Of a stretch of 64,000 nucleotides of DNA, positions 1,257 through 56,874 are shown in pieces. Positions within the stretch are counted from its first letter, which is position 1. Each line of letters begins with the position of its first letter. The DNA is taken from NCBI RefSeq assembly GCF_964204865.1, contig NC_135254.1:11842001-11906000 (forward strand), given 5' to 3'. The DNA comes from Styela clava (Eukaryota). A program made the translations under genes and the position numbers. The notes under the pieces are model-generated. The model worked only from the letters and a program-made list of their open reading frames with translations. It was not told where the DNA came from and made no database searches.

Positions 1257-4200
1257 CTATGGTCCAACGAGAGTCGTCAGAAGATTCTTGTAGTCTCCAC
1301 TGGTATCACCCTGAATGAAACTGCCCAATGTTTTGCTATATGTACGCTGAAACTCTTGTTTGATTTCTACCATGTCAATCTAAAAACAAGAGAGCAAATA
1401 TGAACTAAATGGTCAGAATACCTTTCCTTGTCGCAATGCCACATTATATATGATAGAATCAATTCATTTCCCACTTCACACCCAAATGTAAACATCATAA
1501 ACGTTATCCCAAGACCTGCAGTTGTATAAACATTGTTTTAAAAACTCGTCATGGAGATATCAACAGGAAACATAGCTGCTCACTCAAATCTATTTGAAAA
1601 TATGAAAACTTTTCCACATTACCTCGTTCAGAAAATGCAGAAATATTTTTAAATAATTGTACAAAATATAATCGGAAATTACCTCTGAACGAGAGACAAC
1701 AATTCGAATCAGTGTGTGATCATCAGTTCCTGCACCAGACATAGATTTATAAAGTCTCTTGGCGAAGTACGCAGGTGCGCTACGAGCAGTTTCTACAACA
1801 GCTTTCAGCCCTTCCTCAATATCTCCTGAAAATTCTCCCTCAATAGATTTTGAAATATCTCTATTTGCAATCTGATTGAAAACAAGTTGATCAAGAACAT
1901 GTTAAACTATTTTTACGAAGAGCCAATCTTCACAAAACAAAAAAGCACAGACTTGTTAAAAGTCTTGACATGAAATTTTGATAACTGCAAATCTAGAAAT
2001 TGTTCATTGCATGAACTCCAAATTTCAGCTACAGTGCTACTACGGTATTAAAAGTACATTAATATAATCTAAAAAACAACAAGTCCTAATGGCACCTCCT
2101 CTGTTTATAGGACTTGATATAAGAATACTTGGTTCTGAATCAACAAGGTTTTCACAAGCAATATACCAAAAATATTTCCTACTTTGTGATACTCTATGAA
2201 TGTCGCACGAAGTTGTGGAATACTTCTGGAACACATTATCATGTTGAATGTAGCCTCATCAGTTCCCCATTTCTTTTCACCAGCTTGATAGAGAGCCTGG
2301 GCATCAGCACGGGCCTTTCCTTGGTCAACAGAAGTCGTTTCGTTTCTTGATGCCTGAACGAATAAAAAAAAATTCAATTTCATAAATCTATGCTAGACAA
2401 CATACTTCTTCAAAAATGACAAGGTCACCCAAATATAAGTTAATTTTGATGATAGACTTATAGATATAGATGGAAAAAGTTATATCAATTTTTTTTCTCT
2501 AATAATTCCAGTTTTATATGGCTATTTTTCTGAACATATTGACCCAAACTGATCAAGTACATCGTGTCGATTTGCATTGTGAACAATGATTGATACTATT
2601 CTTTACAGTCTCGATAGCTCTTGGCACTTCAGAGGCCATCTGTAATTTCGCTCAGATATCAGTTTTTATTGCTTCTGAGCTCCGAGTAAATCACATATCA
2701 ACCTATGTCCAAATTACTCAGGTTTACTCACATTGCATAAAGACACAAGCAATCTTGAAAAATGTCCACTTGTCTCGCTCTTCAATGCTTTCTCCAAATC
2801 CTTCTTTCTCTCTTTTTTGAAAATTTCCTTAATCTCCTTTATCTCAGCATTACTTCTTGAAGTGAAGATTTCTATCAGTGCCTGAGTATACATCAATGAA
2901 TATTTAATACAATATATAGGATTCCTATTATCAGCAGAACTGGAGAAGTTTTCGGTGTTCTGAAATTCTCAAAATAAAATAAGCCTCAGAAGTACAGTTC
3001 ATAAATCACAAGATGAAATGTGCCTTATTTTCCAGAACCAGTTTTGTTAAACCATCAGGTTGTACCTTATTCTGTTGACTTAAGGTAGAGTTTGAATATT
3101 CATCCCAAGGGAGAGGAAAACTGATAAAACGACTTATTCATATTGTGAACTACGGGCTCTCGTCAGGTTACCTGTCCACTTCGAGTATGATATTAGCTAA
3201 AAGCTAGCCAAATATTTGTTTTTCAGATGTATATACTTGCTGGTGGAGGAAGCCGTAAACGACCAACGGTTATGTGAACCACCCTACAGCGGCAAGGAGT
3301 CCAGCAATCCTTCCACATATCAATATCCCTGAATGGGATTGGAACCTGCGAACCCACGCAAGGTGATTAGAGGTGCGGTCCGAGCATATTCCCAACGATC
3401 AGCATGATGCGTCACAACGCCAAAACCTAATGAGTTGTATTTCCTGGTATTGTCAATGGGCCATTATGTAACTCTTAGTGAATGAATGGTAAGCCTATTC
3501 ATGGCTTGAAAAAGACATAGGGTTCAAATGACATCTGTTGTAAAAATAGACATTATCCTATGCTACTCGTATTATTACTTACAGATTCATCAGTTCCAAT
3601 TCCGCTCATTGATCTTTCCAAACAATAGACATCATAATGTCTAGGTTTCATGAACATTGCCTTCACCAAACTTTCAAAGTTTCCACTCAGTTCAGACTTC
3701 AAATCTTTGATCAGATCCTGTTTATAGAAAGTTTCATAATATTATGATAAATAATTTATTGTCAACAAAATTCAAAGTCCTTCAACATGGTTTTCTGCTC
3801 TAAAATCATGAAAAAAATTTGAAAGCAAAAATACTTGTAGTACTTATAGATTTGCTTGCATAATTCAAATTTGATATCAATATCCAACAGGAATTAATTT
3901 AGAAATACCACTATGTGTCGCGAAGCTTCATTAAATTGTGGGATAAAGTTTACCTTGTTAAAATCAATCAGTACATGACTCATTATTAAGTAAACAATAA
4001 GGCTAACGTTTACAGTCTCGTCATCCTTCCTATAATTATTCTATTGTAATAACAACACAGGTCAAAAGGAAGTAGCAATAAGAATTGAAGAATTATGTAC
4101 CGTTGACTCAATAAGTGCTTTTTCAACTCAACTGAGAGGAATATAAACAAATATAGATAATAGGTGAAAGTAAATATACCAGTCTGTATGAGCAAATACT

Positions 4201-15970: not shown

Positions 15971-16007
15971 AATTTTTTCAACATCAGCATTTAGTCTAAA
16001 TAACGTT

Positions 16008-16416
16008 TCGGTACCGGTATTGTTCCACTTTCAGACTTTACAAGATTGAAGTTTTGTACGGTACGGTACGGTACCGGTAGCTGACTTTCTTTCTGCCGAT
16101 AATGTTTTTTAAGATACCTACCGTACCTATGTTTTACAGTTTTATGACAGCTGACAGAATGTGGTACCCTACGGTACCGGTATGTTGCTGACAGAAAACA
16201 AAGACACACTTTTTAAAACAATCAAATTTGCAGGGCCATATACGGTACCGGTACCGGTACCGTAACGGTATGAGGTACCGGTACCTGGTAGTCTCTGTTT
16301 CAGCTGTTTTTCTGAGATACGGTACCGGTACCGTACCGGTAATAAAAAAAACTTTGGCGTACAGTATCCAGTTACAGAGCTATAAAACATCTAAAGTCTG
16401 GAAATGTCGGCCCTGG
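16008..16416. repeat. Cluster of palindromic GGTACC/ACCGGT motifs, probably DNA-transposon subterminal repeats
   Basis: Many cggtaccggtaccg units; cagggcc (16231) and ggccctg (16416) resemble hAT ends, but no TSD was seen. Confidence 0.5.
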
Positions 16417-17544
16417 TAAATCGTCCTCTTCTTCCCCAGCAAAGTGATTCCCAGCAACACTTAGCGCCGATAGCGGCACCTATCTTTCAAATTAGAACAC
16501 CTCCATGGTACGATATGGTGTGGATGTTTCTCCGTCACAATTACAAATCAGCAATACGTTAACAATGACGAAACAAATGCAATTTATGCGGCCGCTCAGA
16601 TACTTCTTTTGCTCAAACAGATATTTGAGCGTGATTGTAAACATCACAATTATTTGTTAGTTTTTAGTTTAGGCCGCGAGCCGAGGCACTGAAAAACGCC
16701 TAGAAAGTTGGGCAGCCTTTCCATAGCCCTGTTTAGTTATGCTAAGACGTTGTTAAAAAGTATAAGTAAGTTATTAAACACTTGTAGATCCTTACCGCGG
16801 ATATGGGCCGTGAGACGAAGCCTTGAAAACGCCCAGAAAATGAGTTTCGTAGCGCACATTTGGTAACTAAATAAATTCTTCAGTTTTGTGTGAAGATGAA
16901 CATACTGAACGCATTATAGCTTGTTCCACAATCCTGATGCGAAATTGAATATAAGAGGTTCCCGGAAATTCATTAACCATAAGTTTACAACACATACATA
17001 AGAACTATGCAGTTCGAAAGCCCTACAGCACACTAACACAAATGTATTCCTGTAACGTTTTGCCTGACCAAAATCAGACTTCCTCAGTCAATCATAATTT
17101 ATCGGGTAGATTACGAAAATAATGGCATACATGTAACCAACAACAAAAAATACTCAATTGTGTGACAGGAGTCGCGAGTGACCTCGAGAGGTCTTCAAGC
17201 AGCGACACCAACAACGCTGATACACATTAGCGAATAAATTTTATGTAATAACCACAAGCAGTTTACAACAAGAACAGCATAAAAAGCTACATCCATTTTA
17301 TAGAAGCTATCAAACGTATTTTTTTTTAAACAATGAAGTCACAAATTAACATCGTGTGCACGAAAACACAAATAAATCCGTTATTTCTCACATAGAAATT
17401 TACTGGAAAAGTCAAGAAAATTAAATGAATGTACAGTATGTACATAACATAGTGAACAGAAATATTACAATTAGTCTTTTTTTAGTTTATGTGGTTATGT
17501 ATTTGAACAAAGGCAATATTATTTCTAGAAACAGGACAACGACA

Positions 17545-17990
17545 CTAACAAATGTCCGAAAAAACAAACAGATAAATGATACTTATTAAATCAACTGCAA
17601 TATCCAATTCACTTTCTTCTGAATTGTTTTCGAAATCCACTATCTCGAAAATCGACTTTTCCCCTATAAGGGTACTGTGATTTTTGCAGTCAATACGAAA
17701 ACAAAAATCTGTGCAATTTAAGTTGATTTTGGCACACTCGCATAAATTATTTTGACTATTTTTCCCACACTTGCTTTTTTCCAACTCAAGAACTGATTTG
17801 AGGGCCACATGCTTCTTCAGTGAATCATTGTTGGATGGGAGAGTATAATCCTTGTGTTTGCCAGTGTTAAATAGACGTGCCCTGGCATCATTTACATTCT
17901 TCATATCCTTTTCATACAGTGAACAAACAAATTCCTCAGTTTTATTTATTAATGCCTCGTTGACCTCAAAAGATCTTCATAGTTGAGAAA
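17545..17990 (-). pseudogene. Degraded C-terminus of an Academ(X)-like transposase (XPG-adjacent region plus Cys-rich finger)
   Basis: Translation FSQL*RSFEVNEALINKTEEFVCSLYEKDMKNVNDARARLF...LPS...DSLKKH...CGK...LCECAKINLNCTDFCFRIDCKN matches the E-FVC-LY...VN-AR--LF...LP...Cys-cluster pattern I associate with Academ proteins; stop codon and apparent internal deletion present. Confidence 0.55.
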
Positions 17991-18691
17991 AAAATGAATT
18001 GAAAACCTCAATGAAGTCTCCAACATGAGTTTGATGGGCAGTTCCAATTGCAGAAAAGTGCTAAAGTATTTCAATATGAATAGCCCATCTAAGTGTTTGC
18101 AACTATTATGATTCTCATATACCTTTAAGCTTCAAGACTTCTTGTTTAATACATTTTATAGCACTGATAGCAGCAGGGATTAGAGCCTGCGTTAGGTCGG
18201 ATTGGCGGAACAGAAAATCATATTTGGAACAGCATAAGTGTAAAAATTCCCCTTAAATACTAACTAATACCTTGAATCAGTGGCGGCGCGTGGTCATTTT
18301 AACAACCGGGGCAAGCTACTGCGGGACCAAGTCACCCCCATCTACGGGGACAGGATGAGCGCTGTAAGTTCTCCCATCATTTTACGAGTATAAAAACCAT
18401 TCCATCGGTAACAACCAATCGGCAAAAGCGACAATGTTTAACGATAAGAAAGTGTCTTTAAAACCGGTCCAAGTCAAGGGATTAATAAATATAGACATAG
18501 TTTATTTTGAAACCTCTTTCAAAAGGAAAGGCAATATTTACCCAGATAAATACAATGACATATTACCAGAAACTTCGGGAAAACAGACAAAACCTAAAAT
18601 AAGGTTTAAAACGTTACTATGAAGAAAGGAAAGGTAATGCAAAGATAAGGACATGCGTCGCTCACTCATAGATATATATGCTGCTAGACTT

Positions 18692-20038
18692 CTACTGCTT
18701 GAACATATATGCAACACGCCGCGGTTTCTTGGAAGCAAAATGCTCAATAAGGCGCTGATTAAAGACATGCATCCCAGAAATAACGTCTCTGTGAATGGAT
18801 AAAACAGCCAAGGAATTCAATCTATCTTGCTTCATTGTGTTTCTGAGATACGTTTTAATACGCTTCAGCGTGCTGAATGTTCGCTCTGCGTCGGCGGAAG
18901 AAATAGGCGTCGTCAAAATGATGTTCAGAAATTTTGCAAACGCCGCAAAGGTAGTTACTAGAGTGTTATCTATGAGGAACCCATAGAGCGCGCAAGTTGA
19001 TGTGATGTTCAAAAAAGTTTGATTGGTGTATATACATCGCAATTCATTTTCCAATTTACCCACGTTTATCATGGGGTAAAATTTGGAGACAGTAGCCAAA
19101 AATGGATGGGAAATTAACGTGTAAATTTTGAAAAATTTTTGGGGTTCATCAAAGAGAACGCGGCAAAGTGTTCAGTGCGCAGACGATCGCCTATTTGATT
19201 CACCAGAATGTCACAGCATTCCTTTGCAGACAAAATCAAACGCTGCGTTGTTTGCCCGCGGCGTAAAGGAGCACTCCATGTGTCGTCGTATTTTATTGTT
19301 TCCCGGATACGAGATACAGCATCGCAGAAGTCTGAAATACACGACTGCACAGACGCTCCATCCATTAGCCTTGACTGCAATGCGCCGTATAATACATCCA
19401 CGTGATAGAATATTGTGGAGAAAAAAGCGAGAAAAAATTAAAACTCACCATCTTCTAGTAGTCGCTTTAGACCTGCCGCCGCCCTCACAGAGCGTTCGTC
19501 CCAAACCGGAGAGCTCTGAATGCCATTGAAACACTCAATGAGCTCAGACCTATTTCGGACACGCCCTGCACCACGCGTGATTGGAAGTTCCAACGTGTTG
19601 GTGCACAAGCTGGGAGACGGCGGCTACATATCTGGCGAAGGAGGTCAGAGCGCTTCGGCGAAACGAAAAAAAATGAAGAAAACCCCGAAACATTTGCAAA
19701 AAACATACGGGCGGGAGGGGTATCAAGACACATATTTTTAATAACGAGGTTAAATTGGTGTGCATAACAATGTAAAAAATGCTCATGAGGAAAATCTTCT
19801 TTTATATAAACTTGAACACCATGTTTCGACCCACTCATGACTGCCGCGCCGTCATAAGTTTGAGCTATCAATTTTGACTTCGCGTTGTAAGGCTGTAACA
19901 CTTCTTTCAGTACAGCCGATATCCCGCAAGCCGTGCGATCAACGATTGGTACAAAGCTGTGAAATCTCTCGGTAGGTTTAGCATCTTTCACAAACCGAAA
20001 AATCACAGCCAGTTGGGAAACGCACGTGATGTCAGTTG
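18692..20038 (-). pseudogene. hAT transposase C-terminal half including the hATC dimerisation domain
   Basis: Continues TDITCVSQLAVIFRFV...QTYDGAAVMSG...HCYAHQFNL...PTRWNF...TPISSADAERTFSTLKRIKTYLRNTMKQDRLNSLAVLSI; split over three ORFs by frameshifts. Confidence 0.92.
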
Positions 20039-20568
20039 CAGTGGCGGCGCGTCAATAGGGCCAACCGGGGCAATGCCCCGGTTGTTTTTTCGGTATAATA
20101 AAAAATATTCGAAAAATACCTCAATATCGGTTGCACAGACTGTCTACACTAGCCATATTCTCCCGACATGGTTCATTTTTCGCTCGCAAAGCCTTCGCCG
20201 AACGTCGACGGGGCGACGCCGATTTTGCCCCGGTTGCTCATTGTATATCGTATTCTATCTTTTATCTTCCACTCGCCGCGTTTGTCTCGTTTGTTTTCTG
20301 TTTCTTTTACTACATCATCGGGGCTAGCCCCGAAATCATGATGACACAATGCCGACGTTTCTTACAACAACGTGTTGACATATTCACGCATTCCTTCTGG
20401 TTCGTTGGTTGCTTAAAGAGTTGATAGTTTCCTCGCCTTCGTTTTTGTCGCTTGTTTCGCTATTTGAATCAGTTAGACCCCTTTAGTCCATTTGCTTTCG
20501 ATTTTCCACATTCCTTTTGAGCTCCTCACTTCTTTCCGGCTTCGCATTTCTTAGCCTTAGACCTCATA

Positions 20569-21317
20569 ATGAATAAGGTTGATGCACTACTTCGCACTCC
20601 GTTTTCGCAGCTGCCGCTGGAACAAAAATTAGAGGTACAACGTCTTGGGCCTTATCAACCAAAAAATTGTTCACTGGAATAATCCCATGACGGAGGAAAG
20701 CGTCGGCGTACATTCTGCGCAGAAACTTGGTATAAAAAACACGAATGGTTGTGTTACAGCGAGGACGAAAATGCACATTTTTATGTTTTTATTGCCTACT
20801 TTTTGCTACCGCCCGTGACTCACGTTGGTGTAAATTTGGTTTCAGAGATCTTAAACATTTTTCCGAGCGTGCCAGGGATCATCAATCTTCTATGGAGCAT
20901 CTGGACAATGCAGTAAAATACCGAACATTCGGAAATGTTAATATTGCAGCACAGTTGGATGAAGGACGCGCGGTTTCTATTCGTCGGCACAACCAAAACG
21001 TCGAGAAAATCCGTCATGTTCTCGGTCGATTGATAGATGTTTTGAAGTTCATTGGTTGTCACGAGCTGTCCCTCCGTGGGCACGATGAACGGGCTGGCTC
21101 TTCTAATAGAGGGGTATTTTTGAATATGGTGGAATACACCGCATCCCTAGATACAGTATTGAGAGATCATCTTGATGCCGCAACTGTTTCGAAAGGGACA
21201 TCTAAGGATATCCAAAATGATTTGCTCGACTCAATGTATAAAATTTATTTACAACATTTGGCTCTGGAAATTGAGAATTGCCAGTTCCTTTCGATTCAGT
21301 CTGACGAGACAACTGAC
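20569..21317 (+). pseudogene. hAT transposase N-terminal half (TTF-type zinc finger, DUF4371-like region, first catalytic Asp)
   Basis: MNKVDALLRTPFSQLPLEQKLEV..., in-frame TAA, WYKKHEWLCYS, frameshift, CFYCLLF...LSLRGHDE...NRGVF...SKDIQNDLL...SIQSDETTD, then an abrupt TIR. Confidence 0.9.
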
Positions 21318-24219
21318 CAGTGGCGGCGCGTGTCATTTTGACAACCGGGGCAAGCTACTGCGGCCCATCTACGGGGACAGGATGAGCGCTGTAAGTTCTC
21401 CCATCATTTTATGAGTATAAAAACCATTCCATCGGTAACAACCAATCGGCAAAAGCGACAATTTTTAACGATAAGAAAGTGTCTTTAAAACCGGTCCAAG
21501 TCAAGGGATTAATAAATATAGACATAGTTTATTTTGAAACCTCTTTCAAAAGGAAAGGCAATATTTACCCAGATAAATACAATGACATATTAACAGAAAC
21601 TTCGGGAAAGCAGACAAAACCTAAAATAAAGTTTAAAACGTTACTATGAAGAAAGGAAAGTTAATGCAAAGATACGGACATGCGTCGCTCACTCATAGAT
21701 ATATATGCTGCTAGACTTCTACTGCTTGAACATATATGCAACACGCCGCGGTTTCTTGGAAGCAAAATGCTCAATAACGCGCTGATTTAAGTCATGCATC
21801 CCAGAAATAACGTCTCTGTGAATGGATAAAACAGCCAAGGAATTTAATCTATCTCTATCTAATACGTTTTAATACGCTTCAGCGTGCTGAATGTTCGCTC
21901 TGCGTCGGCGGAAGAAATAGGCGTCGTCAAAATGATGTCCAGAAATTTGCAGACGCCGCAAAGGTAGTTACTAGAGTGTTATCTATAAGGAACCCATAGA
22001 GCGCGCAAGTTGATGTGATGTTCAAAAAAGTTTGATTGGTGTATATACATCGCAATTCATTTTCCAATTTACCCACGTTTATCATGGCATTGCGCCGCCA
22101 CTGATGGTAAGGATATACAAGAGTTTAATATCTTACTTATACTTTTCAACACCTCCTTAGAATAACTGAACTAATAATAATGGAAGAAAAAAAAAACTAT
22201 GGAAAGGCTACCCAACGCAACGCAAAAGCGAGCAGTAGTAAATCTGATGTTCATCCGACCACGGTGGATCCACCTACAGCTGTCTAATTTGTTGTTACGT
22301 CATGCAGAAGTCTGCGTTCATTGCCCCATGATACCGGAAAAGCAGAGAAAATAGGACAGATGGTAACACATATTTATTGTAGTAAAAGCGTCTTTTCTGT
22401 AAAACGTGCAACTTTTGGAAGTGGGAACAAGGCAATATTTGTTACTAAATTTCTAAGGAACATTTTAAAATCATTTTCAGATAGTTACCTTATGTGCGCT
22501 ACGAAACTGAAAGATAAATGGCCTCGGCCTTGTTGTGTTTCCAAAAATAGGTGTAAACCAAATACAATAATTGGCATTATGTTTTCTAAAGACCTTCAGT
22601 TTAGTTGGAATAATCGAAAATTGATAGCGCAAATAAGTCAAGTTTTTTTTTCCAACTAGTAAAAAACAAAACAAAAAACATGCAAAAATTTAAATAAAAA
22701 ATATAATTAAGGTTACTGGGCAGTTATCGCAGCAAACGCTGCGATAGACTAGCCTAAAATTAGCTATCAGTAGGCTACCTAAGCAACAGGTCATAAAAAT
22801 GGTAGTTTTGGACATGTAAGCCAGTATGTATTCGCCAAAGTTTTGCAACGATAAAGAGAATCTCAAAGAGAAAGAAATCTGGAGAGAATCTCCCGGAAGT
22901 CAATGGTTGTGGAAACGTCTATACAATTTTCATATTCATACAAAAAATCTGTAATTCACTGGATAGTGGATACCAAAGTCAAAGTGACTATAACCCAAGT
23001 GAGGACATCGAGTGCGATGATTTTTTGCGTTTGTTTATATATTAAACCACTTATCACCTTTTCCGCAATGCGCAATCAAGCAATCAGTGTAGTTTTTCAT
23101 GGCTTGGGTTTTTCTTAAAGCTTTCATGGCTTCATGAGTATTACTATCGTCGCAAATTTATTACATTCCACTCCCCACATTATCTTTGCATGAGATTGTA
23201 GGTATTGGTCATTATCAACGTAATTGTTGAAAGTACATCAGCCCGAAAGTTTAATACTATCGTGTATTTTGTTTAGGTTTGGCCCAAGCCGCATTTAAAT
23301 TGGGCTTGTGTTTTGTGTGCGTGCTGATGGGCAGGCAAATGAGATACTTCTCATGTTTTAAACTTTTCATAGGTTTTGCTTGTCCTCCAGAATTCTCCAT
23401 TTTTAATTTATGTTTGTTATGGAGTTTTCAAAATAAACTATCTATGCCTAATGCGGCTTCACTGCGCCCAATGCGCTGCTACTAATGCGCCTCACTAGGC
23501 GTAGTGCGCTGCTCCTAATGCTCTGCACGCAATGAGACTTTTATGTTACCACCACTGATGGTTCCGTTTGTCAGTTTGGCTGGAGATTCGTGATTGTTTT
23601 GAATTTTATTTGGGTAAGTTTAGTATTTTTTTTGCTATTTGTTATTAATGGAACAATACTGGTTCCGTGCAGTTTCGTGAAAGTTGCGATATTTATCCTA
23701 TCATAGCTGTACGATCGAGGTGTAACTTATAAGTTAACACCCTGGGCACTGAACTGGAAATAGATTATAACGTTACTGGTGTATGGAACAATCATCTCTC
23801 TCGGTTCACGTTGTGTTGCCTGTTTTTCGTGTATGCTTGTAGCGAACAAGATAATAATGAAAGTGAGCAAAAATGGATATATCCGAGGACATTTCATATG
23901 CGAAATCGACTACAAGTACCATACTATTATCAATATCAGTTTTTATAGTCACTTTGGTGAATACGAAATGTACATGTCGATCGTTTTGTTGAATTGTTGT
24001 TGTTTTTTATTGCCGTGTTATTGAAAAAACGTACTGGACACAAAGGGAAACAATGGATCGATCTTTTCAGCAACTCATTTAAGGTCGTGAGAATTGCTCT
24101 ATTGTTCGACACGGAGTGGCCTCCTCTAAATTTCAATTGCTTTTGTTGTTAGTTTTGTTGTTCTAGTTGCGTTGCTGTAATGTCTTATTGTGCCGCTGCG
24201 CAACTTGCAAAATCTACTG

Positions 24220-38951: not shown

Positions 38952-40656
38952 GAGGGGTTCCAAACCGCAGCCCGCGGGCCAATTACGGCCCGCGTAACGA
39001 TTTAAAATGGCCCGCCGAACTTGAGTGAAAAAGTTTAACACTTCATGTGGTACGTTTGAGTTTTAGATTCCGTCTATCCTTACATCATTATCACAGTTTA
39101 AGCACTTTTATTTCGTAACAATTGAATTATACTGGTATATTACGCTCGTATGTATACGTATGGGTATTAGGATTACACACCGCAGTATTTTAGATACCAT
39201 ATTAGCCATATATTAAGAAAGCTTGCAGATGTCACAAAACAAAAAGTAGGCACTGAAAACAGACATTTTTTAGATGAATGGCAGTGTTTTTATTTCTTTA
39301 TTGGAAAAAAATCAAACTTCAGCGATTTGTCTTCCTTGCCAACAAAAGATTTCAGTTCTGAAGGAATACAACATTATGCGCCTTTATGATCAGTTGACGC
39401 GCGTATTTCAAAATTTAATTCATTGCTTGATTCGTACAAAAGTCAAACAAACATGTTCAAAAAAATGTGAAATGTGTAACAAAACAAGCCATAAGTAGCC
39501 AAACATACGATGCCATATGCTAGATGAGCAAGTAACTTCATTAGTCACTATAAGTTGTAAATTACTTGCTGAAAGCCGTGCTTGTTATTTATTCCTCGGG
39601 AATTCTATCAGCTAAATATTATAATTATTAATTTCATTACATAACAAACTGCGATGCTAGGTGTATCTAAAATCAAGCTTTGAACCTATTTTGGTGCCTA
39701 TTTCTCAAAATTTTCTCAGGCCGCTTAAGCGCGCCCTGAACCCCAGCCGTATCGTCGCGCACTTTTCCTCGCTCCCCTTTTCTGGCCCTACAATTTTATC
39801 CTGCTGTGTATTTTGGCTCGCCGACAATCAACTCGGGGGACCCCCTCATGTACATCGTTTCTTAAATACATACCAATTTTTGAGAATACAAATAGTTTCA
39901 TCGCTAATAGCAAATTATTTACCACCCCTAAATTTCGAAACACCCACCCCCCCCCCAAAATTAAAAGCTGGGGAACATACTGGCTGCAGGTCCAATCCGT
40001 GTATGTCACAACTGCTAATTCAAAATGCCATTTTGAAATGCAAAACATTACGAGAACGGGTTGAACAAACTCTTTTGTAATGTCCGGGGCATTGCGCAAA
40101 CAGAAAATGCGAGCTGTGCTATGTCCGTCGCATCTGCTCTTGGCCAACAGCTAGCTACTGGTAATAGAATGGAAAGTATTTTTATGTGCCTCTATTAACG
40201 ACGTTTCACGTTCACTGAAAATCTGTAATGCATTTTTACAAATTGACCCATAACGTTGTAAGCCTTATTGACAGCCAAAGATGAATACCAAAACAGGCAT
40301 AAACGTTTTTCTTAAACTGAAGGGAGAAGCTTTGACTTCCGTGCGTCATTGAAACCTCTTCAATCAGCATTCGTCTGATTCAGCTGAAATTGGCTATCAT
40401 GTAACTACAATTTCACGACTACCGCTATAATCAACACAATTAACTGATCTTCTTGTTTAACTTTAGCTTTTATAAAGTGCATGTTAACGAATGACTGTAT
40501 TGCATACTATGGAAGACAAAATAGCCTATTATTTCTCCATGAAAAACATCAACATCAAAATCTAGTTTCAGTTTAGTTGTCGCAGCATCAGGCGGGCCAG
40601 ATTGAATTACCTTACGGGCCGGATACGGCCCACGGGCCGTAGTTTGCCAATGTCAG
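38952..40656 (+). mobile_element. Decayed Buster/SPIN-like hAT element with a remnant of the transposase N-terminus, interleaved with other repeats
   Basis: Left end with ggcccgc repeats; 39230-39385 reads, with a frameshift, KVGTENRHFLDEWQCFYFFI..SAICLPCQQKISVLKEYNIMRLY (GTF2IRD2/SPIN-like zinc-finger start); right end ggcccacgggccgtagtttgccaatgtcag. Confidence 0.6.
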
Positions 40657-40842
40657 GTCTAGCCTTACGTGACTACAACATGACCCTGTGAACAGTTGTT
40701 TTTCAACAGCAACCAATAGTTTCACATACGGGCCACGAGCAAGGCAGTTTACGGGGCAGTCTAGCACGTAGCTTTCTCGGTACTCCTGAAGTATGCGTAC
40801 CAAGATGGCGAACACCGGAGGGTAGTATGTGTACCAGGTTAA
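40526..40842 (+). repeat. 317-bp direct repeat, copy 1 (outer flank of the inverted CYP duplicate)
   Basis: Colinear with 48700-49016; I count about 8 substitutions. Confidence 0.95.
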
Positions 40843-42525
40843 GATTTGTTTGAAAACTTAAGTGGATTGTAGCACTGAATGTAAACGTTCGTATTCAACA
40901 ATATGTCTTGAAATGCCTACCTATCCAACATATAGTGAATACTAAACACAAATTGATCTAAATAAAAATAGCTTTAAGATGTACGTGAACGTACAGCCTT
41001 GCTCGGAAAGAATGGCCTGAATAAGCGCCGTATAAAAATATATATTATAATTACCAATATGATAATTATAATTATGAAACATATTTCCCAATATGACATA
41101 TACAACGTTTCCTCTTTCTTTACCACTGCCCTATGTATGAATTCATTTGGCCATCTGTTGAAAAAAACCAAAGAAATAAATCATATATATATTATAAGAA
41201 GATTGCTATCACGAAGACACGCACTACACAACGTGAATTTAGCATTGAAATAGTTTCCAAAAATTGTCTCGGTAAAATATCTATCTGCAAAACACTATCA
41301 TCATTATTACTTAGTGTTGCTTTATATAACTAGAGCGGGTTCATTTATGCTGTTTTCGAGTTAGCGCTGTGTCCTTTCGCGTGATCTTCATATTATTCAA
41401 AGCAACGAAAATTACGCATCGGAGGTCATTACGTCACGCAAGTTGCATCGGGTTGCAACACAGTGTTGCCATCCGGATCACGAGTTGGCACACAAAGTTG
41501 TTCGTCGTGATGTAATTCTTAACAACGCCAAATTGAGTGGTGGTGACAAAGATTTTGCAACGTGGAACCTAAACAACATTATCTTCTGTTAGAAAGTGAA
41601 TGAAATAGTGAGATAACCTATATTTTCGCAAATAATATTATTATAATTTTAGCTGTTCCGCAATTTCGACGCCGCAGGTCATAATATTGGTTTGATTGTT
41701 GATTATGATGTTAATGAAGCAAGTTTTGATTTGAACAGCATAAAATCATCTGATCAAGCGTGAACTAACACGATGCAGTCCTTGTGATACATTTTCATGC
41801 TCGCTCGCTGCTGCAATGGAAAGGAGTATAAAACTTAAAATAACAGCAATTCCTATTCTTGTTACCATCGACAATATATCAGTAGCTCTTTATCACGAAA
41901 ATTTAGTTCGCTAATTTTCCACAGCCTTATTTCGAATTTAAGCTCGGAATGTTCAACTTCGGAAGCATACAGATGAACAATCATATATAGTAATTCAAAC
42001 ATGATGAACATATATGTGACAAATGCTGTACATTTATAGAAACTATGTTCAACCCCTCTTCTAGTAGTTCCATCCTATTTTCTACTTCATTTCGTCTTGT
42101 TTACGTATGTGCATGCAATGAAACAATCTACGAAGTTGAAATAACGTGAATTGCGATACCATTTTATATGCATATTTTCAGAGGAATTTTAATGCGCTAG
42201 TGACACAAATTGTGATCGCGTGTAAAAGACGCATGAAATGTGATGACAGTTACTCACGAAATGGTTGCAAATACATTAAATCAATGATGTCAAATATATG
42301 AAGACACAAAGTTATATTTTGTTACACTTTTATTTTTGATTTTTGCAGTATATTTTTCGTTTATTGATAGCTTAACATTGCATGAAATACAAAATCAGTA
42401 GTTGTAAAGTAATCAATATTCGGAGTCATTTCTTGTTGTGGTCATAGTGACCGAATTGGTAAAAATTTAAAAAAATGTATAAATAAACAAAGTTCGAAAG
42501 TCAATCTTATTTCTTCCTTTCACAT

Positions 42526-45500
42526 TTACTCTGCTACATTTCTTGGTTCCACCTTCAAATCGAAGTTCACTTCAGGAGCAAGGGTATTGGTGAATTTGAA
42601 TTTCATGGGCGCCTCCTGTGAAAGTAACTTAATATGTCTTGAGTACGTCATTTTAATAACGTTAAATATACTTAATGAAAACAAAAAGACAAATGCACTC
42701 CCAAGCTGTAACAGAATATAATTGTATTATACATTGAAGTAATTTTTTGATTTCTATGAGTAACGTATAACAACCATATTGTCCACAAGAGCATACCCAA
42801 TGTTTGTCATCACGTAAAGCCCGTATCAATAATTAACTTTATCACATAGCGTAACGAGATGATTCAATAAATAATTCGTGATTATAATGAAGCTAATATA
42901 GAAGTGTTTACAAACCGGTGTATTCTCTGCAGGTTTAATAGTAAACTGGTGTAAAATCTTCGCTAGTGCCATCTTGACTTCTATCAGTGCAAATCTCAAG
43001 CCAATGCAATTTCTCGGTCCTGCTCCAAACGGTTGAAACATCATCGGATCAATTTGGCTTATGTCGCGCATTCTGAAAATATCAACTCCAAATAAATGAG
43101 CGGTCAATACTGGACATCTACATTTTCATTTTTCATACTTCAAACTGTTATCATGCTTCTGGGGTTTTAAAGGCTACAAATCGCAATCGCTCGTGTGTAG
43201 GGAAAAAAATAAGAGATACTAGAATTGAACATATTGATATTTCGTATTTATCATAACAGAACAATGTGGTGAAAAACTGCAGTGCATTTCATAGTCGTCT
43301 CACGCCAAAATTCATTGCTCGCTTTATTTTACGAGCATTCCAGGATATTGATTCGGTTTCAGTTGGACTAACTACCCACCATTCCTCTGTGTTTTTATGC
43401 CAGTGGATCCATATGCATATAATACAAGGATGCTATAGCAAAATTAAAAACTACTATTCTAAATAATTCCATATAAATCCACCACGTGGTAATATTTTAA
43501 GTAATTCAAGAGTTTTGGTGCACATCTAGTGGCAAATCTAGCTCAAGTCTTGAATTATGTAGTTTAGTTGAATCATGTATGTCTGGGACGACTGACTTTG
43601 GTCAGATGAAACGTTCCAAAAATATCATTGTGCTAGTGTGAAGCGAAACTATTGAATTACTCGGAATATTAGCACGTGTTTGCTTTATATTTTCATGGAA
43701 ATATTGGTCAATATTTAAATATCATATTTGACTTTCTCATTATACGAAATTGCTTGCTGTTTATACCATTTTTATCAGTTATGGCAAATATTACATTGAA
43801 CTAAATTGACTATATTTAATGTCTATGTAGTACAAAAAAAATGGGTAATTCTAAATTAAATCTTAAGCTGCTCAGCCGTTGCTAAATGTTTATTGACCAT
43901 TACTGTTTAATTATATAAATGAGTTGAATTGAAAAAAAAAAAGATACCTTTCCGGTTTATAAGCAAACGGCTCGTCCCAATACTCAGGGCCATGTGACAG
44001 TCCATACATCGGTATGGCAACCAACAATCCTGCTGGTATTGTGAGGCCATTGATTGTTGTTTCTCTTTCAGCTATGCGAGCCTTTCTAAACATAAATATT
44101 TACGATGGAAGGTTCTACAAAGAAATGCATTTTACCCATAAATACACTCATAATTCAGAACGAAAGCATTATATAACTTTACGTTGCACTAAATATTGCA
44201 CACGGAAAAAACCTAAAATTTGCAAATTTTCATCCTATTGTTCAACAGTCCAATTTTTGGAGTTTCAAGAATATTTTTTAGTTCAAAATTGTTCGTACTA
44301 TACAATTCGCCTTTTTACCCACAAAAAATAAAAACATTTAAAATAAAACGTACTTTATAATTGGCGTATAAAGTCTATAAGAGTTTCATTGATACACATG
44401 TCCAGAAACTTCAAGCCATTTATACCATCATAATCCAGTTTGCCCTGAATAATCATTAAAAATGTTATTATTATGCTGCACATCACGAATTAAGTATTGT
44501 GTACAGCGCATTGGGATCTTGTCACAAGTAACAAAAAATCTTTCCCATTTGAAAAACAAATTTGCAGGCATAGACAGTATGGAAGTCAATTTAATGTATT
44601 TCTGTGGCATTCGAAAAGCTTGATTGATTTTACGTCAAAAGGGTCCTAAAAAGCAGAAACTACATTAGAAATTAAATCTGTTCATAACATATATACATGA
44701 GTTTTTATCATTTCATCTCTTTCTTCTTGAACTTTGGCCTGTATTTCCGGATGTCGGGCAAAATTGAAAAAGAAACTAAAAACGAATTATTAATACACGG
44801 CGATAATGCACTGGTTGTAATTGTAATAGTATTTATTATTTTGAAGAAGAGAAATATTTATAAAATGTAGTTGTTTTATCAGTGCACGTTATGGTATATC
44901 TGGAGGTTCTGGAACGTCTGGACAGAAATTTTCAAGTTGTTTTGAGAATGTCAGAACACAATTTCGGAATAACATATTACGTGAGTATAAAGCGTTGATT
45001 AATTGCCTTTTATACAGCATGCTAACATTGTTTCACAGCTAAACTGCTGGTCATTAACTAAAGCACTTACTCTTTTGAATTGGAAACTCCCCCATTGTTC
45101 TCAACCTTCTTATTTAATGATACAATAGCGTTATCAGCACACCATTCCATTATCGTCGTCATTTGCCTCAACTTTGCGGAGGAAAAAGTTAGTGTCAGTG
45201 TGTTTCTATAACAATATTATTGCAAATATATTCGTACCAATATGGTAACATAATTAAGTGCATCGAAAACCAGGAAGCTTCATGAAGTCAAGTATTTCTG
45301 TTTTAATACAGACATTATACGTGAAATAAATATCAATTAGGGCCGGGTTTTGCAACCATTTATCTAATGTGTACATAAATAAATATTGGACCTCCTGAAG
45401 TATGCGCACCAAGATGGCGCACAGCCTGAACTCAGGTTGTGTACCAGGTTAGGGTTCAGGTTATGCGACATCTTGGTGCGCATACTTCAGGAGTACCTAA

Positions 45501-48425
45501 ATATCACAGTAATGACGAAGAACTAATGGATATTAATAATACTACAGAAAATATAAATCAAAATTCCTCCATAAGAACAACAAAACTCTAAGAAGAACAA
45601 CTCAACGTAGCAGATAAACATTATATTATAATATATACAGATTTTTTGTGAATCACAGTTACGATTAAAATAAAATAATGCATTTTTCTTTGGTATATCT
45701 CGTGATATCAATGTATACCTCATACGTTTCCACTGTTTTAGATCAACATTGGTTAAACTGTTGTTCAACTCTTCGCCGCTAATCTTCAAGAAACGACGCT
45801 AAACATATACAAAAAAATACAATCCCAAAGATGTCAGGCTAGCAACAGAAAGTTGGCAGTTGCCTAAGGTCCTATGTATCGCTTTATGGTAAATGATAAT
45901 TATCATTTAATATATCTTTTTTTTACGTTTAATCCAAACAGCGATATATGATGGTGATTGAAAAAGTCACCCACTCAACAATAAATTTAACAAAATATAT
46001 CACCACTCCACCTGGCGCATTGCAAAATTTGAAAACTCTTTTATGAAAATTTGTCTCAGTATGTCAGGATCATGAATGTGAATCGTTGGGGTAATTCTGA
46101 AGTAAGTCCTGAAAATATTTAAATTTGGTAAATGTACGAAGTACAGTTAGCAAATGAAAAATCTAAAGATTATCCATTTTGCTTTGTTAGGCGTTTCGCT
46201 TTTTCTCGTCTGTATTGATATAAAACGGCTCATGTTTTCCAGATAACTCTGCAACTTCACCGGTGAATTAGGGATTTTTGCCGTCAAGTTGGCGATTGGA
46301 GACTTTGTTTTAAGAATAATTGCAAAAAATTCCTTACTTATATAGAAGCAAAGTATTGAAAATTGTATATTGATGAAATTCACCTACCCGTACACATTTC
46401 CAAACTTTTCTTTGCATTTGTTATCATACCGCAACGCTGCCTGAAAAATTGAAATTCACACGGAAAATTTAGGTGTTTACGAGATTTTTATAACGACGCA
46501 GCAATAAGAGTGCAATGTAACTTTGGCCTCAAAACGTCTTTGAAAATAACACACTAAATTAGGGTTGCCATACCGTCCGGAAAATTCCGGACATGCCCGG
46601 AATTTACGGTTAAATTTTGCGTCCGGGAAGAATTTAAAAATTCTCAAATGTCCGGAATCCGGAATTTTACTGCACCTGCAATCTTACTATGCACACTGCT
46701 AATACAGAACATTGTTATTTCGTACCGCGCGCATATTTTCACTACGAAGTCATGAAAATAGTTATGCACCGTCCGGAATTTTGCTTTTTCAAATATGGTG
46801 ACCCTACACTAAATAGTGAATGTGGCAATGCAGTTCAGGAATAAATTCGTTATTTCAGGTAAAATACATTAAAAAGACCGGAAATTGCTAATTTCGAATT
46901 TCTCCAAATTCATGAATTGGATCGATATAGGACCCGTTGTATATAGACAAACAGATGACAACCAAAAATATAATTGGATCGATGACATATGGTAATTAGT
47001 ATTCCATACTCGAATCGATAACCCCTGATGGAATCGATATCACCATACGCACATACGTGGTATGGTTTCAATTGGATATTCAAAAGGGAGGTATTAAAAG
47101 GTCTGGTATTAGGAGTCGAATCGTCTGTATCAGTGTCGTTTCGTCATGTCTTCATCGTTTGTTCTCCGTGTCTATCTACAATATTAAACTACTTCAACAA
47201 CGTTCAACATCGTTCTTCAACGTGTTTTTATTGGCTAAAATGGTGACAACGTGTTCTTTATTGGCTAAAGCAGTACACATAATTATAGCAACTATAAAAT
47301 AAAAAGCAGGAGAGAAATTTATCCAGATAGTCATTAATAATTTAGCAGTTTTTCCGTCGTTACCGCAAGCTTGAATTGGTAGCCAGTTAAATATGCCTAC
47401 CTCCGCTCCGAAAGTATAAGATAAGTGTCCAAACTTTCGAATTGAACAAGGCTCGTGTGGAATATTAATATTTTTCAGGTATTGCCATTTCCGATGAATA
47501 TAATATCTGAACAAACGAAAAGAGGAAAATGAAACACACTGGAGAAAACTTGTGTACCAGACCATGGCTAAATATCTACCAAACACCTTTTTTAACTATA
47601 ACAATGCCCAATTAAACAATTGCAATTTATTTTAATCAACTAAAAAATGGAAATTAGACATAAATGAATTTGATACATACGAGTACGACACAGTCAGAAT
47701 GTAGCCAAAGCGTATAGGAAGCTTGTCAACGCGGATGGTGGCAAATGGCAAGCTTTACCGACCAAGAGATTACGTCATTCGCGGCGGTTGGAGGGTATGA
47801 CAGGCATTGTCGCATTATACATATATGGGCACGACAGTGTTGTGCTCTCGAGCAAACAAGAGCCCGATGAGATGGAAATTGAATCTCGTTTACGATCCGA
47901 GCAATAAGTATAGTACGTTCCCGATATAGCTATATAAACACTATCCGTATGTTCTAGCATGTCATAGTTAATCAATCATCATTTATTCATCAAAACAATA
48001 TAAGCGTATTATAAGAAAAAAAACCTTATAAATAACAAAAGCTTATTAAAAAGTCTGGGACATTCTGATACAACAATGATCACATTCATTTATTTTTTTT
48101 CTGCTAAAATAACAAAAGACCCAAGGAAAATAAAAATTTCTGGTCTGTGATTTACATACAACTAGTCAGCCCGGAGAGCATGTTGACTGGGATTGTTTCG
48201 AAAAACAAGTCGAAGTATTTAGTCACGTTTTGTGTTTCATTTTTAACCCTGCATTCGAGCCGCAATAACAGTAAGCACAGACGCTGCCAAGGTTCTGCGT
48301 CAAAACTTACTTTAAAAGATTATAAGATAGATATAGTCGTTTATGCGAACTTACCTGCCTAACGCCAATAAGCTGATGATTAAAACCCAAGTCTCAATGG
48401 ATAGAATGTCCAGTGGAGTGATCAT
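42526..48425 (-). pseudogene. CYP3-like cytochrome P450 pseudogene (inverted duplicate)
   Basis: Same exons as 49800-56461, but a ~1.37-kb deletion at ~44770 fuses the start of exon 7 to mid exon 10 (removing the I-helix), and a 2-nt insertion at ~44377 frameshifts the ETLR motif; the heme motif FGAGPRNCIG is still intact. Confidence 0.9.
46560..46806. mobile_element. hAT-type MITE inserted after the duplication
   Basis: TIRs tagggttgccata / tatggtgacccta; 8-bp TSD cactaaat; tccgga subterminal repeats; empty site at ~50960 in the other arm. Confidence 0.92.
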
Positions 48426-48699
48426 CTTTATGCTGTAGCTTCAATCCAATCTTCGAGGCCGATACAACTTGTCGAACCTCTGTCTGTATATCAACTAAAG
48501 AAGCTGTGTTCGAAAACCAACCAAATGCATGCGGGGTAAAAATAAATAAAATGTGGAACTGTTTCAAAACTGATACGGGCAGGAAAACATCTCGGCTAAT
48601 TGAACACATTGATCTTTTTTGTATATTTCAGTAAATATTTGCAAGATATATCAAAAAGGTCGCTCGTTAATTTGATCTTTACCTCGAAGGCAAGTAAAG

Positions 48700-49016
48700 C
48701 TATTATTTCTCCATGAAAAACATCAACATCAAAATCTAGTTTCAGTTTAGTTGTCGCAGCATCAGGCGGGCCAGATTGAATTACCTAACGGGCCGGATAT
48801 GGCCCACGGGCCGTAGTTGGCCAATGTCAGGTCTAGCCTTAGGTGACTACAACATGACCCTGTGAACAGTTGTTTTTCAACAGCAACCAATAGTTTCGCA
48901 TACGGGCCACGAGCAAGGCAGTTTACGGCGCAGTCTAGCGCGTAGCTTTCTCGTTACTCCTGAAGTATGCGTACCAAGATGGCGAACACCGGAGGGTAGT
49001 ATGTGTACCAGGTTAA
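48700..49016 (+). repeat. 317-bp direct repeat, copy 2 (inner flank of the inverted CYP duplicate)
   Basis: Colinear with 40526-40842; only this copy continues into the remainder of the MITE it ends in. Confidence 0.95.
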
Positions 49017-49799
49017 TCCATAATTTTAGGTACAAATACTCGTTAAAAGCGAGGCAAAATGGAAGTAGGCATTGAAGATGATGTTCTGGGTTTAGGAGCC
49101 TGGACACGCCACATGTGTACATTGGTTCTTTCCACAGCAGGCGTTCACGTGGTAGATTGCACCATTGAGTAACGTCGAGAACTATGTAAACCTTATGTGA
49201 ATGAAGATGTGTGTATTTTATGACGAATAGATATTTTTATATTGGTAGACAATTATACATTCGAGATTTGGCAGTCGCGCGCTAGATACCGTTAACATAT
49301 AAGCTCGCGCTGAGACACGGAAATATTTATTGCTCACGGTAGTAGACAACTCGGTACATTGCTTGAAAATATCGTATCGCCATTTGCCAGGGCCGGCGGT
49401 GACTAGGTTGCGTTGCATAAGTTGGTAAATGAGTTAAGGTGGAAAATAACATCAAGGGTTAACATAAAATTATTGGTACTAGACCAGATAAAAATAGAGA
49501 TATTTCTCATACAATCATTGCGGAAACTTTACTTGGCTTCGAGGTAAAGATCAATTAACGAGCGACCTTTTTGATATATCTTGCGAATATTTACGGAAAT
49601 ATACAAAAAAGATCAATGTGTTCAATTAGCCGAGATGTTTTCCTGCCCGTATCCGTCTTGAAACAGTTCTACATTTTATTTATTTTTACGCCGCACGTAT
49701 TTGGTTGGTTTTCGAACACAGCTTCTTTAGTTGATATACAGACAGAGGTTCGACAAGTTGTATCGGCCTCGAAGATTGGATTGAAGCTACAGCATAAAG

Positions 49800-52700
49800 A
49801 TGATCACTCCACTGGACATTCTATCTATTGAGACTTGGGTTTTAATCATCAGCTTATTGGCGTTAGGCAGGTAAGTTCGCATAAACGACTATATCTATCT
49901 TTTAATGTAAGTTTTGACGCAGAACCTTGGCAGCGTCTGTGCTTACTGTTATTGCGGCTCGAATGCAGGGTTAAAAATGAAACACAAAACGTGACTAAAT
50001 ACTTCGACTTGTTTTTCGAAACAATCCCAGTCAACATGCTCTCCGGGCTGACTAGTTGTATGTAAATCACAGACCAGAAATTTTTATTTTCCTTGGGTCT
50101 TTTGTTATTTTGGCAGGAAAAAAAATAAATGAATTTGATCATTGTTGTATCAGAATGGCCCAGAATTTTTAATAAGCTTTTGTTATTTATAATGTTTTTT
50201 CTTATAATACGTTTATATTGTTTTGATGAATAAATGATGATTGATTGACTATGGACATGCTAGAACATACGGATAGTGTTTATATAGCTATATCGGGTAC
50301 GTACTATACTTATTCCTCGGATCGAAAATAAGATTTAATTTCCATCTCATCGGGCTCTTGTTTGCTCGGAAGCACAACACTGTCGTGTCCATATATGTAT
50401 AATGCGACAATGCCTGTCATACCCTCCAACCGCCGCGAATGACGTAATCTCTTGGTCGGGAAAGTTTGCCATTCGCCACCATCCGCGTTGACAAGCTTCT
50501 TATATGCTTTGGCTACATTCTGGCTGTGTCGTATGTATCAAATTCATTTATGTCTAATTTTCATTTATTAGATGAATAAAAAAAATTGCAATTGTTTAAT
50601 TGGGCATTGTTATAGTTATTATAGGGGTTCGGTAGGTATTTAGCCATGGTCTGGTACACAAGTTTTCTCCAGTGTGTTTCATTTTTCTTTTTTCGTTTGT
50701 TCAGATATTATATTCATCGGAAATGGCAATACCTGAAAAATATTAATATTCCACACGAGCCTTGTTCAATTCGAAAGTTTGGACACTTATCTTATACTTT
50801 CGGAGCGGAGGTAGGCATAGATATTTGGCTACCATTTCAAGCTTGCGCCGGTAACGACGGAAAAACTGCTAAATTATTAATGACTATCTGGATAAATTGC
50901 TCTCCTGCTCTTTATTTTATAGTTGCTATAATTATGTGTACTGCATTGCCACATTCACTATTTAGTGTGTTATTTTCAAAGACGATTTAAGGCCAAACTT
51001 ACATTACACTCTTATTGCTGCGTCGTTATAAAAATATCGTAAACACCTAAATTTTCTGTGTGAATTTCAATTTTTCAGACAGCGTTGCAGTATGATAACA
51101 AATGCAAAGAAAAGTTTGGAAATGTGTACGGGTAGGTGAATTTCATCAATATACAATTTTCAATACTTTGCTTCTATATAAGTAGGGAATTTTTTTGCAA
51201 TTATTCTTAAAACAAAATCTTTTATCGCCAACTTGACGGTAAAAATCCCTTATTCACCGGTGAGGTTGCAGAGTTATCTGGTAAACAGTTTTGAGAAAAC
51301 ATGAGCCGTTTTATATCAATACAGACGAGAAAAAGCGAAACGCCTAACAAAGCAAATTGGATAAACTTTAGATTTCATTTGCTAACTGTACTTCGTACAT
51401 TTACCAAATTTAAATATTTTCAGGACTTACTTCGGAATTACTCCAACAGTTCACATTCATGATCCTGACATACTGAGACAAATTTTCATAAAAGAGTTTT
51501 CAAATTTTGCAATGCGCCAGGTGGAGTGGTGATGTATTTTGTCAAATTTATTGTTGAGTGGGTGTTATCAATTAATTTTAACAACTTTTTCAATCACCGT
51601 CATATGTCGCTGTTTGGATTAAACGTAAAAAAAGATATATTAAATGATAATTATCATTTACTATAAAGCGATACATAGGACCTTATGCAACTGCCACCTT
51701 TCTGTTGCTAGCCTGACATCTTCGAGATTTTCTTTTTTTGTATATGTTTAGCGTCGTTTCTTGAAGATTAGCGGCGAAGAGTTGAACAACAGTCTAACCA
51801 ATGTTGATCTAAAACAGTGGAAACGTATGAGGTATACATTGATATCACGAGATATTCCTTGAGAAATACACGAGAAAAATGCATTATTTTATTTTAAACG
51901 TAACTGTAATTCACAAAAAAATTTGTATAATCTAATGTTTACGTGCTACGTTAAGTTTCTCTTCTTAGAGTTTTGTTGTTCTTATGGAGGAATTTTGATT
52001 TGTATTTTCTGTAGTATTTATAAATATCCATTGGTTCTTCGTCATTTCTATAATATTTAGGTACTTCTGAAGTATGCGCACCAAGATGTCGCATAACCTG
52101 AACCCCAACCTGGTACACAACCTGAGTTCAGGTTGTGCGCCATCTTGGTGCGCATACTTCAGGAGGTCCAATATTTATTTATGTACACATTAGATAAAGA
52201 TTGCAAAACCCGACCCCAATTGATATTTATTTCAAGTATAAAGGCTGCATTGAAACAGAAATACTTGACTTCATAAAGCTTCCTGGTTTTGGATGCACTT
52301 AATTATGTTACCATATTGGTACGAATATATTTGCAATAATATTGTTATAGAAACACACTGACACCAACGTTTTCATCCGCAAAGTTGAGGCAAATGACGA
52401 CGATAATGGAATGGTGTGCTGATAACGCTATTGTAGCATTAAATAAGAAGGTTGAGAACAATGGTGGAGTTTTCAATTCAAAAGAGTAAGTACTTTAGTT
52501 AATGACCAGCACTTTAGCTGTGAAACAATGTTAGCATGCTGTATAAAAGGCAATCAACCAACGCTTTATACTCACGTAATATGTTATTCCGAAATTGTGT
52601 TTTGACATTCTCAAAACAACTTGAAAATTTCTGCTTAGACGTTCCAGAACCTCCAGATATACCATAACGTGCACTGGTAAAACAACTTCATTTTTTAAAT

Positions 52701-56461: not shown

Positions 56462-56874
56462 ATGTGAAAAGTGGAAATGAGATTGACTTTCAAACTTTGT
56501 TTGATTATACATTTTTTTTTAATTTTTACCAATTCGGTCACTATGACCACAATAGGAAATGACTCCGAATATCGATTACTTTACAACTACTGATTTTGTG
56601 TTTCATGCAATGTTAAGCTATTAATAAACAAAAAATAGACTGCAAAAAGCAAAAATAAAAGTGTAACAAAATATAACTTTCTGTCTTCATATATTTGACA
56701 TCTTTGATTTAATGTATTTGCAACCATTTCGTGAGTAACTGTCACCGCATTTCATGCGTCATTTACACGCCATTAAAATTTGTTTAGTCACTAGCGCAAT
56801 TAGAATTCCTCTGAAAACATGCATATTAAATGGTATCTCAATTCACGTTAATCAACTTCATAGATTGAATTATT

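Follow-up and report, generated by a model that had tools for sequence, protein, structure and literature searches.

How can a DNA transposon come to carry part of its own transposase gene back to front? The question is raised by a 64,000-nucleotide stretch of the Styela clava genome (assembly GCF_964204865.1, contig NC_135254.1, positions 11,842,001 to 11,906,000 of the forward strand), referred to here as the window, in which a hAT transposon of ~3,030 bp, copy A, is split at positions 1270-1277 of its family sequence, the split 8-mer being present in inverted form at both breakpoints. An initial annotation, drawn from the letters alone, had taken the locus for the fossil of a reversed-ends transposition, the 5' end of copy A and the 3' end of a neighbouring copy B having been excised together and inserted into copy A. 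That transposase made the inner junctions is close to certain, and reversed-ends transposition of two neighbouring copies is the best explanation of the locus as a whole, with a probability that we put at roughly 0.55. The part of the annotation's claim that holds is a transposase-made inversion with an inverted 8-bp duplication, while the origin from two copies stands as the best reading, and an unproven one.

The split hAT copy and its surroundings

The window holds four terminal-repeat cores, at 18278, 20039 and 21318 on the plus strand and at 22103 on the minus strand. The 8-mer GTCAGTTG at 20031-20038 (minus) is the exact reverse complement of CAACTGAC at 21310-21317 (plus), and each is directly followed by a terminal repeat, the 5' end of copy A at 20039 and the 3' end of copy B at 21318. 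The first 8-mer closes the C-terminal part of copy A (18278..20038, minus strand; family 1270-3032), which has its 3' terminal repeat at 18278 and encodes the YDGA, HCYAH, TRW and AERTFS motifs together with the hAT dimerisation domain (PF05699, E 7.6e-11 in the window). The second closes the inverted segment (20039..21317, plus strand), which comprises the 5' terminal repeat within family 1-1277, running from one element end to the target; it contains an ATG at 20569, a stop at 20680-20682 and the N-terminal part of DUF4371, and ends in the DETTD codons. When both are placed on the majority sequence derived from 17 full-length copies, the plus and minus pieces overlap by exactly 8 bp. DUF4371 is divided between them (profile 60-162 and 169-234), and the two transposase halves, when joined, read ...SDETTD/ITCVSQL in frame, as the initial annotation had it. 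With the segment re-inverted and one 8-mer removed, a comparison which that annotation had proposed, copy A measures 3,032 bp, aligns end to end with all 17 full-length copies and lies 1.32% from their majority sequence. The outer flanks, CCTTGAAT on the left and ATGGTAAG on the right, do not match. All the annotated coordinates hold, and so do the inverted 8-mers beside terminal repeats and the differing flanks. The same arrangement at many family loci had been named as one outcome that would count against the fossil; each inversion junction is present once in the 377-Mb assembly and 29 of the 29 other best family copies are colinear across the 8-mer, so an arrangement common to the whole family is rejected. 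The observation is real and not a product of chance.

The family element is ~3,030 bp long (3,008-3,036 bp in 17 copies), with 14-bp terminal repeats and one intronless 695-codon open reading frame (ORF) at family 531-2615, or 69% of the element. The assembly contains 1,310 exact terminal-repeat ends and hence at least 655 copies, which lie 0.6-1.4% from the majority sequence in a star-like pattern. Among 44 simple copies, the target duplication is an exact 8 bp in 26, has one mismatch in 4, is shifted or partial in 8 and is lacking in 6; the preferred target is nTnnnnAn, matched fully by 7 and by half by 15 of the 26 exact duplications. The first D of DETTD is the putative first catalytic aspartate; its spacing to HCYAH is 91 aa, which presumably fits that of Hermes, a transposase that is itself weakly matched (E 0.065) over the CxxH, TRW and glutamate motifs and not over DETTD. 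DUF4371 and PF05699 (E 1.4e-9) are both found in the family copy L041, and the 8-bp target duplication, short terminal repeats, length within 2.5-5 kb and dimerisation domain are those of hAT elements, the length and terminal-repeat ranges being taken from PMC3942097. The BuT2 and Tip group described there is alike in its length of ~3 kb, short terminal repeats, 8-bp duplication, and combination of DUF4371 with the dimerisation domain; the present family differs in its intronless 695-codon ORF and 14-bp repeats, and the likeness is one of shared features and not of a tree.

Several further features of the family were observed. Family position 2676 in the 3' non-coding region (approximately window 18634 and 21661) carries A in 24, C in 17, G in 6, T in 5 and a gap in 3 of 55 copies, without linked variants, the mean minor-allele share elsewhere being 0.011. 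Insertions of 0.2-1 kb with 8-9-bp duplications lie inside the copies L094, L100 and L089 and are probably other hAT-type elements. At G000:C1:6864628-6889152 (L130-L132), three tandem units carry the same deleted copy with the same 8-bp duplication, forming a segmental repeat of ~11-12 kb. Eight of the 44 copies (L036, L047, L051, L052, L094, L095, L099 and L104) have a target duplication altered on one side. In several of them the final base is complemented and some extra bases follow, resembling a hairpin footprint next to an element that has not left; these may be one-ended cuts that were re-joined.

The initial annotation had attached significance to an inversion landing at the catalytic DETTD codons, and this we regard as coincidence. 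The breakpoint lies 7-14 bp past the first base of those codons, ~3% of the element falls within 15 bp of any of the three catalytic codons (a post-hoc estimate), and with so much of the element coding, any landing in the ORF would disrupt it. Besides its stop, copy A has frameshifts at family 743, 1756 and 2210. These defects may be older or younger than the inversion, so that copy A may or may not have been intact, or the source of the enzyme, at the time, and the event is only possibly self-inactivating, as the initial annotation had called it. The other copies of the family, counted at no fewer than 655 with copy A, are potential sources of transposase.

Copy B consists of a 3' part (21318..22087, minus strand; family 2236-3032), which is a direct repeat of 18278-19074 and carries deletions of 1, 12 and ~14 bp, and of a 5' stub (22088..22103, minus strand). 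Its 5' end reads family 1-12, then 34-39, then 2236 onward, the joins passing through 2-bp microhomologies, and the stub is unique in the assembly. Since it is a unique stub joined through microhomologies, copy B was most likely cut down in place by a 2.2-kb internal deletion. The same uniqueness led us to reject membership of a non-autonomous family, and a composite insertion of the maize kind (PMC4270019) was rejected because copy B lacks a direct duplication.

Both copies lie within an older host transposon of ~2.6 kb, whose two flanking remnants are colinear parts of one family. The left part (16670..18277, plus strand) has the terminal repeat TAGGCCGCGAGCC at 16670, an internal deletion near its left end and a divergence of ~5% from other host copies, and includes an ORF remnant (17545..17976, minus strand) that matched no Pfam family at threshold; the right part (22104..22528, plus strand) lacks the last 10 bp of its terminal repeat. 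Host terminal repeats start with TAG, and 3-bp target duplications were present in all 4 host copies with both ends found, features by which we take the element, provisionally, to be Academ-like. Comparison with 28 host rows, of which 16 had both flanks paired, 5 were wrongly matched to an inner inverted repeat and 7 were without one of the flanks in a 1.5-kb margin, shows what is missing from the window. The gap measures 537-597 bp in 11 of the 16 paired rows (10 distinct loci, L056 and L076 being one) and 823-1309 bp in the other 5; the window 8-mers stand at or beside its edges in all paired rows (L082 being deleted at the left edge). It starts right after CCTTGAAT (18270..18277, plus strand) and ends right before ATGGTAAG (22104..22111, plus strand, of nTnnnnAn form), likely the surviving halves of the target duplications of copies A and B, respectively. 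Precisely between the outer hAT ends, then, the window lacks ~580 bp of host sequence, or more if the host was a longer version, and neither outer junction has microhomology between host and hAT. The loss of DNA between the ends, as originally proposed, is borne out at ~0.55-0.6 kb, a size made measurable by the other copies of the host element into which A and B had both inserted. A search of the window did not find the lost spacer, and a search of the assembly for both predicted inner junctions, with up to 2 mismatches, returned 0 matches, on which grounds we reject the idea that the spacer was moved and not lost. Scored with the family target matrix, all three target 8-mers resemble real targets, at the 86-88th percentile (CCTTGAAT at the 86th of host 8-mers and ATGGTAAG at the 88th), approximately the in-sample median of the 26 true duplications.

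Reversed-ends transposition as the probable origin, and its rivals

The event to which we assign the somewhat better than even probability given above would have begun with a single host transposon holding two like-oriented insertions ~580 bp from each other, copy A targeted to CCTTGAAT and copy B to ATGGTAAG. Transposase, possibly supplied by another copy, would have paired the 5' end of A with the 3' end of B over the spacer and cut both, the spacer being lost together with the inner halves of both target duplications. The paired ends would then have attacked CAACTGAC inside A in the inversion orientation, flipping bases 1-1277 of A and duplicating the 8-mer. Copy B would have lost its bases 13-2235 in place, through microhomology repair, before or after the inversion; a deletion after it would have removed the 1.3-kb inverted arm and frozen the structure.

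Reversed-ends transposition alone accounts in one step for the four features shown at the locus, namely the inverted duplication, an additional 3' end, outer 8-mers that do not match and the absence of host DNA between the outer ends. At the locus, an 8-bp duplication of the family's own target length stands at both breakpoints beside element termini, the inversion runs from end to target, and the DNA between the ends is gone. The same outcome is known from maize, where inversion from one end to the target creates a new 8-bp duplication at both breakpoints with loss of the inter-end DNA (PMC8225341) and where ends 331 bp apart undergo such transposition often (PMC9910405). Linked pairs act together in this family, as on C6, where two copies 6.1 kb apart lie within one shared 8-mer. 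If 655 copies were placed at random, the number of same-orientation pairs would be, as a rough expectation, 0.34 at distances up to 600 bp and 2.9 at distances up to 5 kb.

Whether A and B were separate elements bears directly on this. Their 3' ends carry ~10 and 8-10 substitutions, respectively, with 0 shared, and differ at 20 of 770 sites (13-24 in other pairs of copies) as well as at family 2676 (C vs A); the sister-copy relic L087, in contrast, shares 6 of 6 and 7 variants. The absence of shared variants and the mismatched outer 8-mers fit two separate elements, in a test of low power. Subfamily markers that might tell A from B were sought among 58 sampled loci and none was usable, there being no linked variants and only position 2676 being common, and unlinked.

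Several observations weigh against an origin from two copies. No two-copy progenitor was seen. Of the 44 ordinary copies, 6 are without matching flanks and a further 8 show an alteration in one flank, so that one element followed by a flank deletion would not be rare, with the flank-deletion rate given only as up to 6/44 since some of the six may be decayed duplications. The outer 8-mers on the two sides of a mirror event on C6 match, as routes from one locus predict, and a later move of the composite fits equally. The comparison of variants is weak in a star-like family, the C6 partners sharing only 0-2 of 16-41, and position 2676, with its four alleles and no linkage, may be a hotspot and not a mark of lineage. 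Finally, there is no read support, as none of the four public sequencing runs aligned to the window (X15, X16, X17 and X21) bridges 21317/21318, the junction tested at fine scale, these runs being other haplotypes and so no evidence either way.

Three other routes yield an identical core, according to our own derivation; under each of them the outer 8-mers should match, and the loss of flank has to be added as a separate event. The first, which is unlikely but deserves serious weight, has an inverse copy nesting at CAACTGAC (which we take to be a structure like double Ds), recombination between the inverted N-terminal parts flipping the middle, and a separate deletion of ~580 bp at one outer end. 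It employs common events only and explains the change of the 8-mer from direct to inverted, the 0 shared variants and the difference at 2676; by chance, 0.86 inverse nestings are expected, and self-nesting is seen on C6 at family 205-212. In rice, inverted Ds copies 1.1 kb apart recombined in 33 of 300 plants (PMC3239180). The matching outer 8-mers which this nested insertion predicts are not present, a mismatch that a later flank deletion could hide, but this third event must end exactly at the terminal repeat without microhomology, and only 0.12 loci are expected even before the inversion step; the crossover itself, which should leave a chimeric N-terminal part, would be invisible in a star-like family.

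Rather unlikely is a hybrid element insertion, as defined for P and Galileo elements (PMC2775673), in which, after replication, A's 5' end on one chromatid and its 3' end on the sister inserted together into A, a later flank deletion removing the spacer and one outer duplication. One starting element would suffice, the C6 composite has matching outer 8-mers, and L087 shows that sister copies have been rearranged in the family. Copies arising in this way should, however, have been identical at the event, whereas A and B share 0 variants (a chance of 0.11 if the event time is uniform, with low power) and differ at 2676, a weak mark with four unlinked alleles, and the outer flanks do not match. 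Far less probable is an inversion circle formed by autointegration, which recombined into a resident deleted copy, or templated its repair, through the shared 3' 800 bp, the flank deletion again being separate. The sequence 18278-21317 corresponds to a circle of this kind after circular permutation, its terminal redundancy being 797 bp, and Sleeping Beauty and piggyBac make inversion circles with target duplication (PMC3952818), but no hAT case is shown in the available part of that paper, and germ-line uptake of a circle by homology as well as the flank deletion would be required, for neither of which the locus holds evidence. An assembly artefact in a high-copy repeat, with which the lack of bridging reads would agree, is barely credible, as a mis-join would not give an exact 8-bp inverted duplication at two terminal repeats, the microhomology stub is unique, every part has private variants, and the runs without many of the window's private alleles represent other haplotypes.

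Sequencing runs, other relics and neighbouring repeats

The identification of the runs as other haplotypes follows from the many private window alleles that are absent from them. In X21, of which ~6% was read, the window allele was found in 0 of 87 reads at 16917, 0 of 30 at 17222, 0 of 41 at 17330 and 0 of 40 at 22122, and the colinear family join occurred in 300 reads. Contig depth is 0 at 21321-21326 in X15, X16 and X17, a place where each of the 7 X21 reads has the extra G of the family. Contigs of X15 and X16 cross the left end of the host (16537-16698). In X16, the window alleles at 17330, 17697 and 17962 are covered at the depth of a single copy, but 7 of the 10 listed and covered hAT sites do not have the window allele, which hints weakly that the composite is polymorphic. 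Runs labelled as other organisms or metagenomes contained 0.06-0.37 of the sequence words searched for, one of them (X19) giving 225 reads; in X1-X3 and X8, by label four other organisms, the share of words from 16500-23500 was 0.19-0.37. Mixed samples or a horizontal spread of the hAT are possible sources, and no horizontal transfer is claimed.

Other aberrant relics of the family occur elsewhere in the assembly. At G000:C6:4546637-4565578 (L034, L084) lies a mirror self-inversion: family 1-1786 comes first, an inverted 3' part next and a full copy last, and TTCAATGG, at family 1779-1786, is present twice in inverted orientation. This composite is nested in another copy at family 205-212, between matching GTATATCG 8-mers, and later expanded to three 5.9-kb units that share 8-12 of 15-16 variants, far removed from the few shared by the original partners. 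The matching flanks favour one-locus routes there, and a later move of a two-copy product also fits. Over G000:C6:4546637-4574741 (L035, L084, L086), two GTTGATAG 8-mers enclose this array together with 6.1 kb of different DNA and one more full copy; the inner flanks differ, an arrangement like that of a macrotransposon. At G000:C1:5954188-5963388 (L087, L127), a copy has been duplicated in inverted orientation along with 2.7 kb of its flank. This young relic has its end 7 bp away from a 3' terminal repeat, and its two arms have in common 6 of 6-7 variants as well as a deletion of 58 bp. No further self-inversions were found among ~60 regions of C1 and the start of C2, drawn from the first 100 of the 1,310 terminal-repeat matches.

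Elsewhere in the window, large nested inverted repeats of 88-95% identity occupy 40526-58918 (42116-44175 vs 56875-54853, 44770-46559 vs 52786-50960, and 47262-48699 vs 50951-49527) and constitute an old palindrome-like duplication. An older, diverged hAT-like end related to the family lies at 23350-23560 on the opposite strand, and a small palindromic element with GGTACC-rich repeats at 16000-16420.

Known systems and what the locus adds

The mechanism is already known, and the locus is probably a clean natural example of it. The reversed-ends inversions of maize Ac/fAc, such as the allele p1-wwB54 (PMC8225341, PMC9910405), likewise involve a hAT with facing ends a few hundred bp apart, an end-to-target inversion, an 8-bp duplication at both breakpoints and loss of the inter-end DNA; here, by contrast, the target lies inside one of the two elements, the inversion spans 1.3 kb and not 81 kb, the host is not a plant, and the progenitor is reconstructed from other copies of the host transposon. 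Reversed-ends fossils in maize B73 (PMC3744419) were similarly recognised in genome sequence by patterns of target duplication beside hAT ends, but are three tandem duplications of flanking DNA and not self-inversions. Hybrid element insertion of P and Galileo (PMC2775673) yields the identical inverted core from one locus but predicts identical copies and a shared outer duplication, neither of which is seen here. When Sleeping Beauty and piggyBac undergo autointegration (PMC3952818) the ends also attack the element's own body and give an inverted product with target duplication, the products there being free circles, whereas both ends remain chromosomal here. A literature search for a natural, non-plant reversed-ends event landing inside one of two elements found none, a weak negative given that most subscription papers lay outside the search; the supplementary junction tables of the maize papers may include targets inside Ac.

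The proof of alternative transposition is good where Ac/Ds alleles were engineered or selected, and likewise for P elements, but natural relics in which every scar is readable are few. The locus adds no new chemistry and affects no host gene, and alone it cannot separate one-step from multi-step routes. What it shows is a non-plant hAT making such rearrangements in the wild, with products that, as on C6, seed tandem arrays. Taken together, the two independent self-inversions with inverted 8-bp duplications (in the window and on C6), the macrotransposon-like pair on C6, the sister-copy duplication on C1 and the one-sided hairpin-like scars in 8 of 44 copies raise the possibility, a doubtful one, that this animal hAT burst gave rise to aberrant transposition routinely and not just once. 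Were that so, the family would be a natural census of every alternative-transposition route, among them self-targeting, by which a burst would measurably destroy transposase genes of its own.

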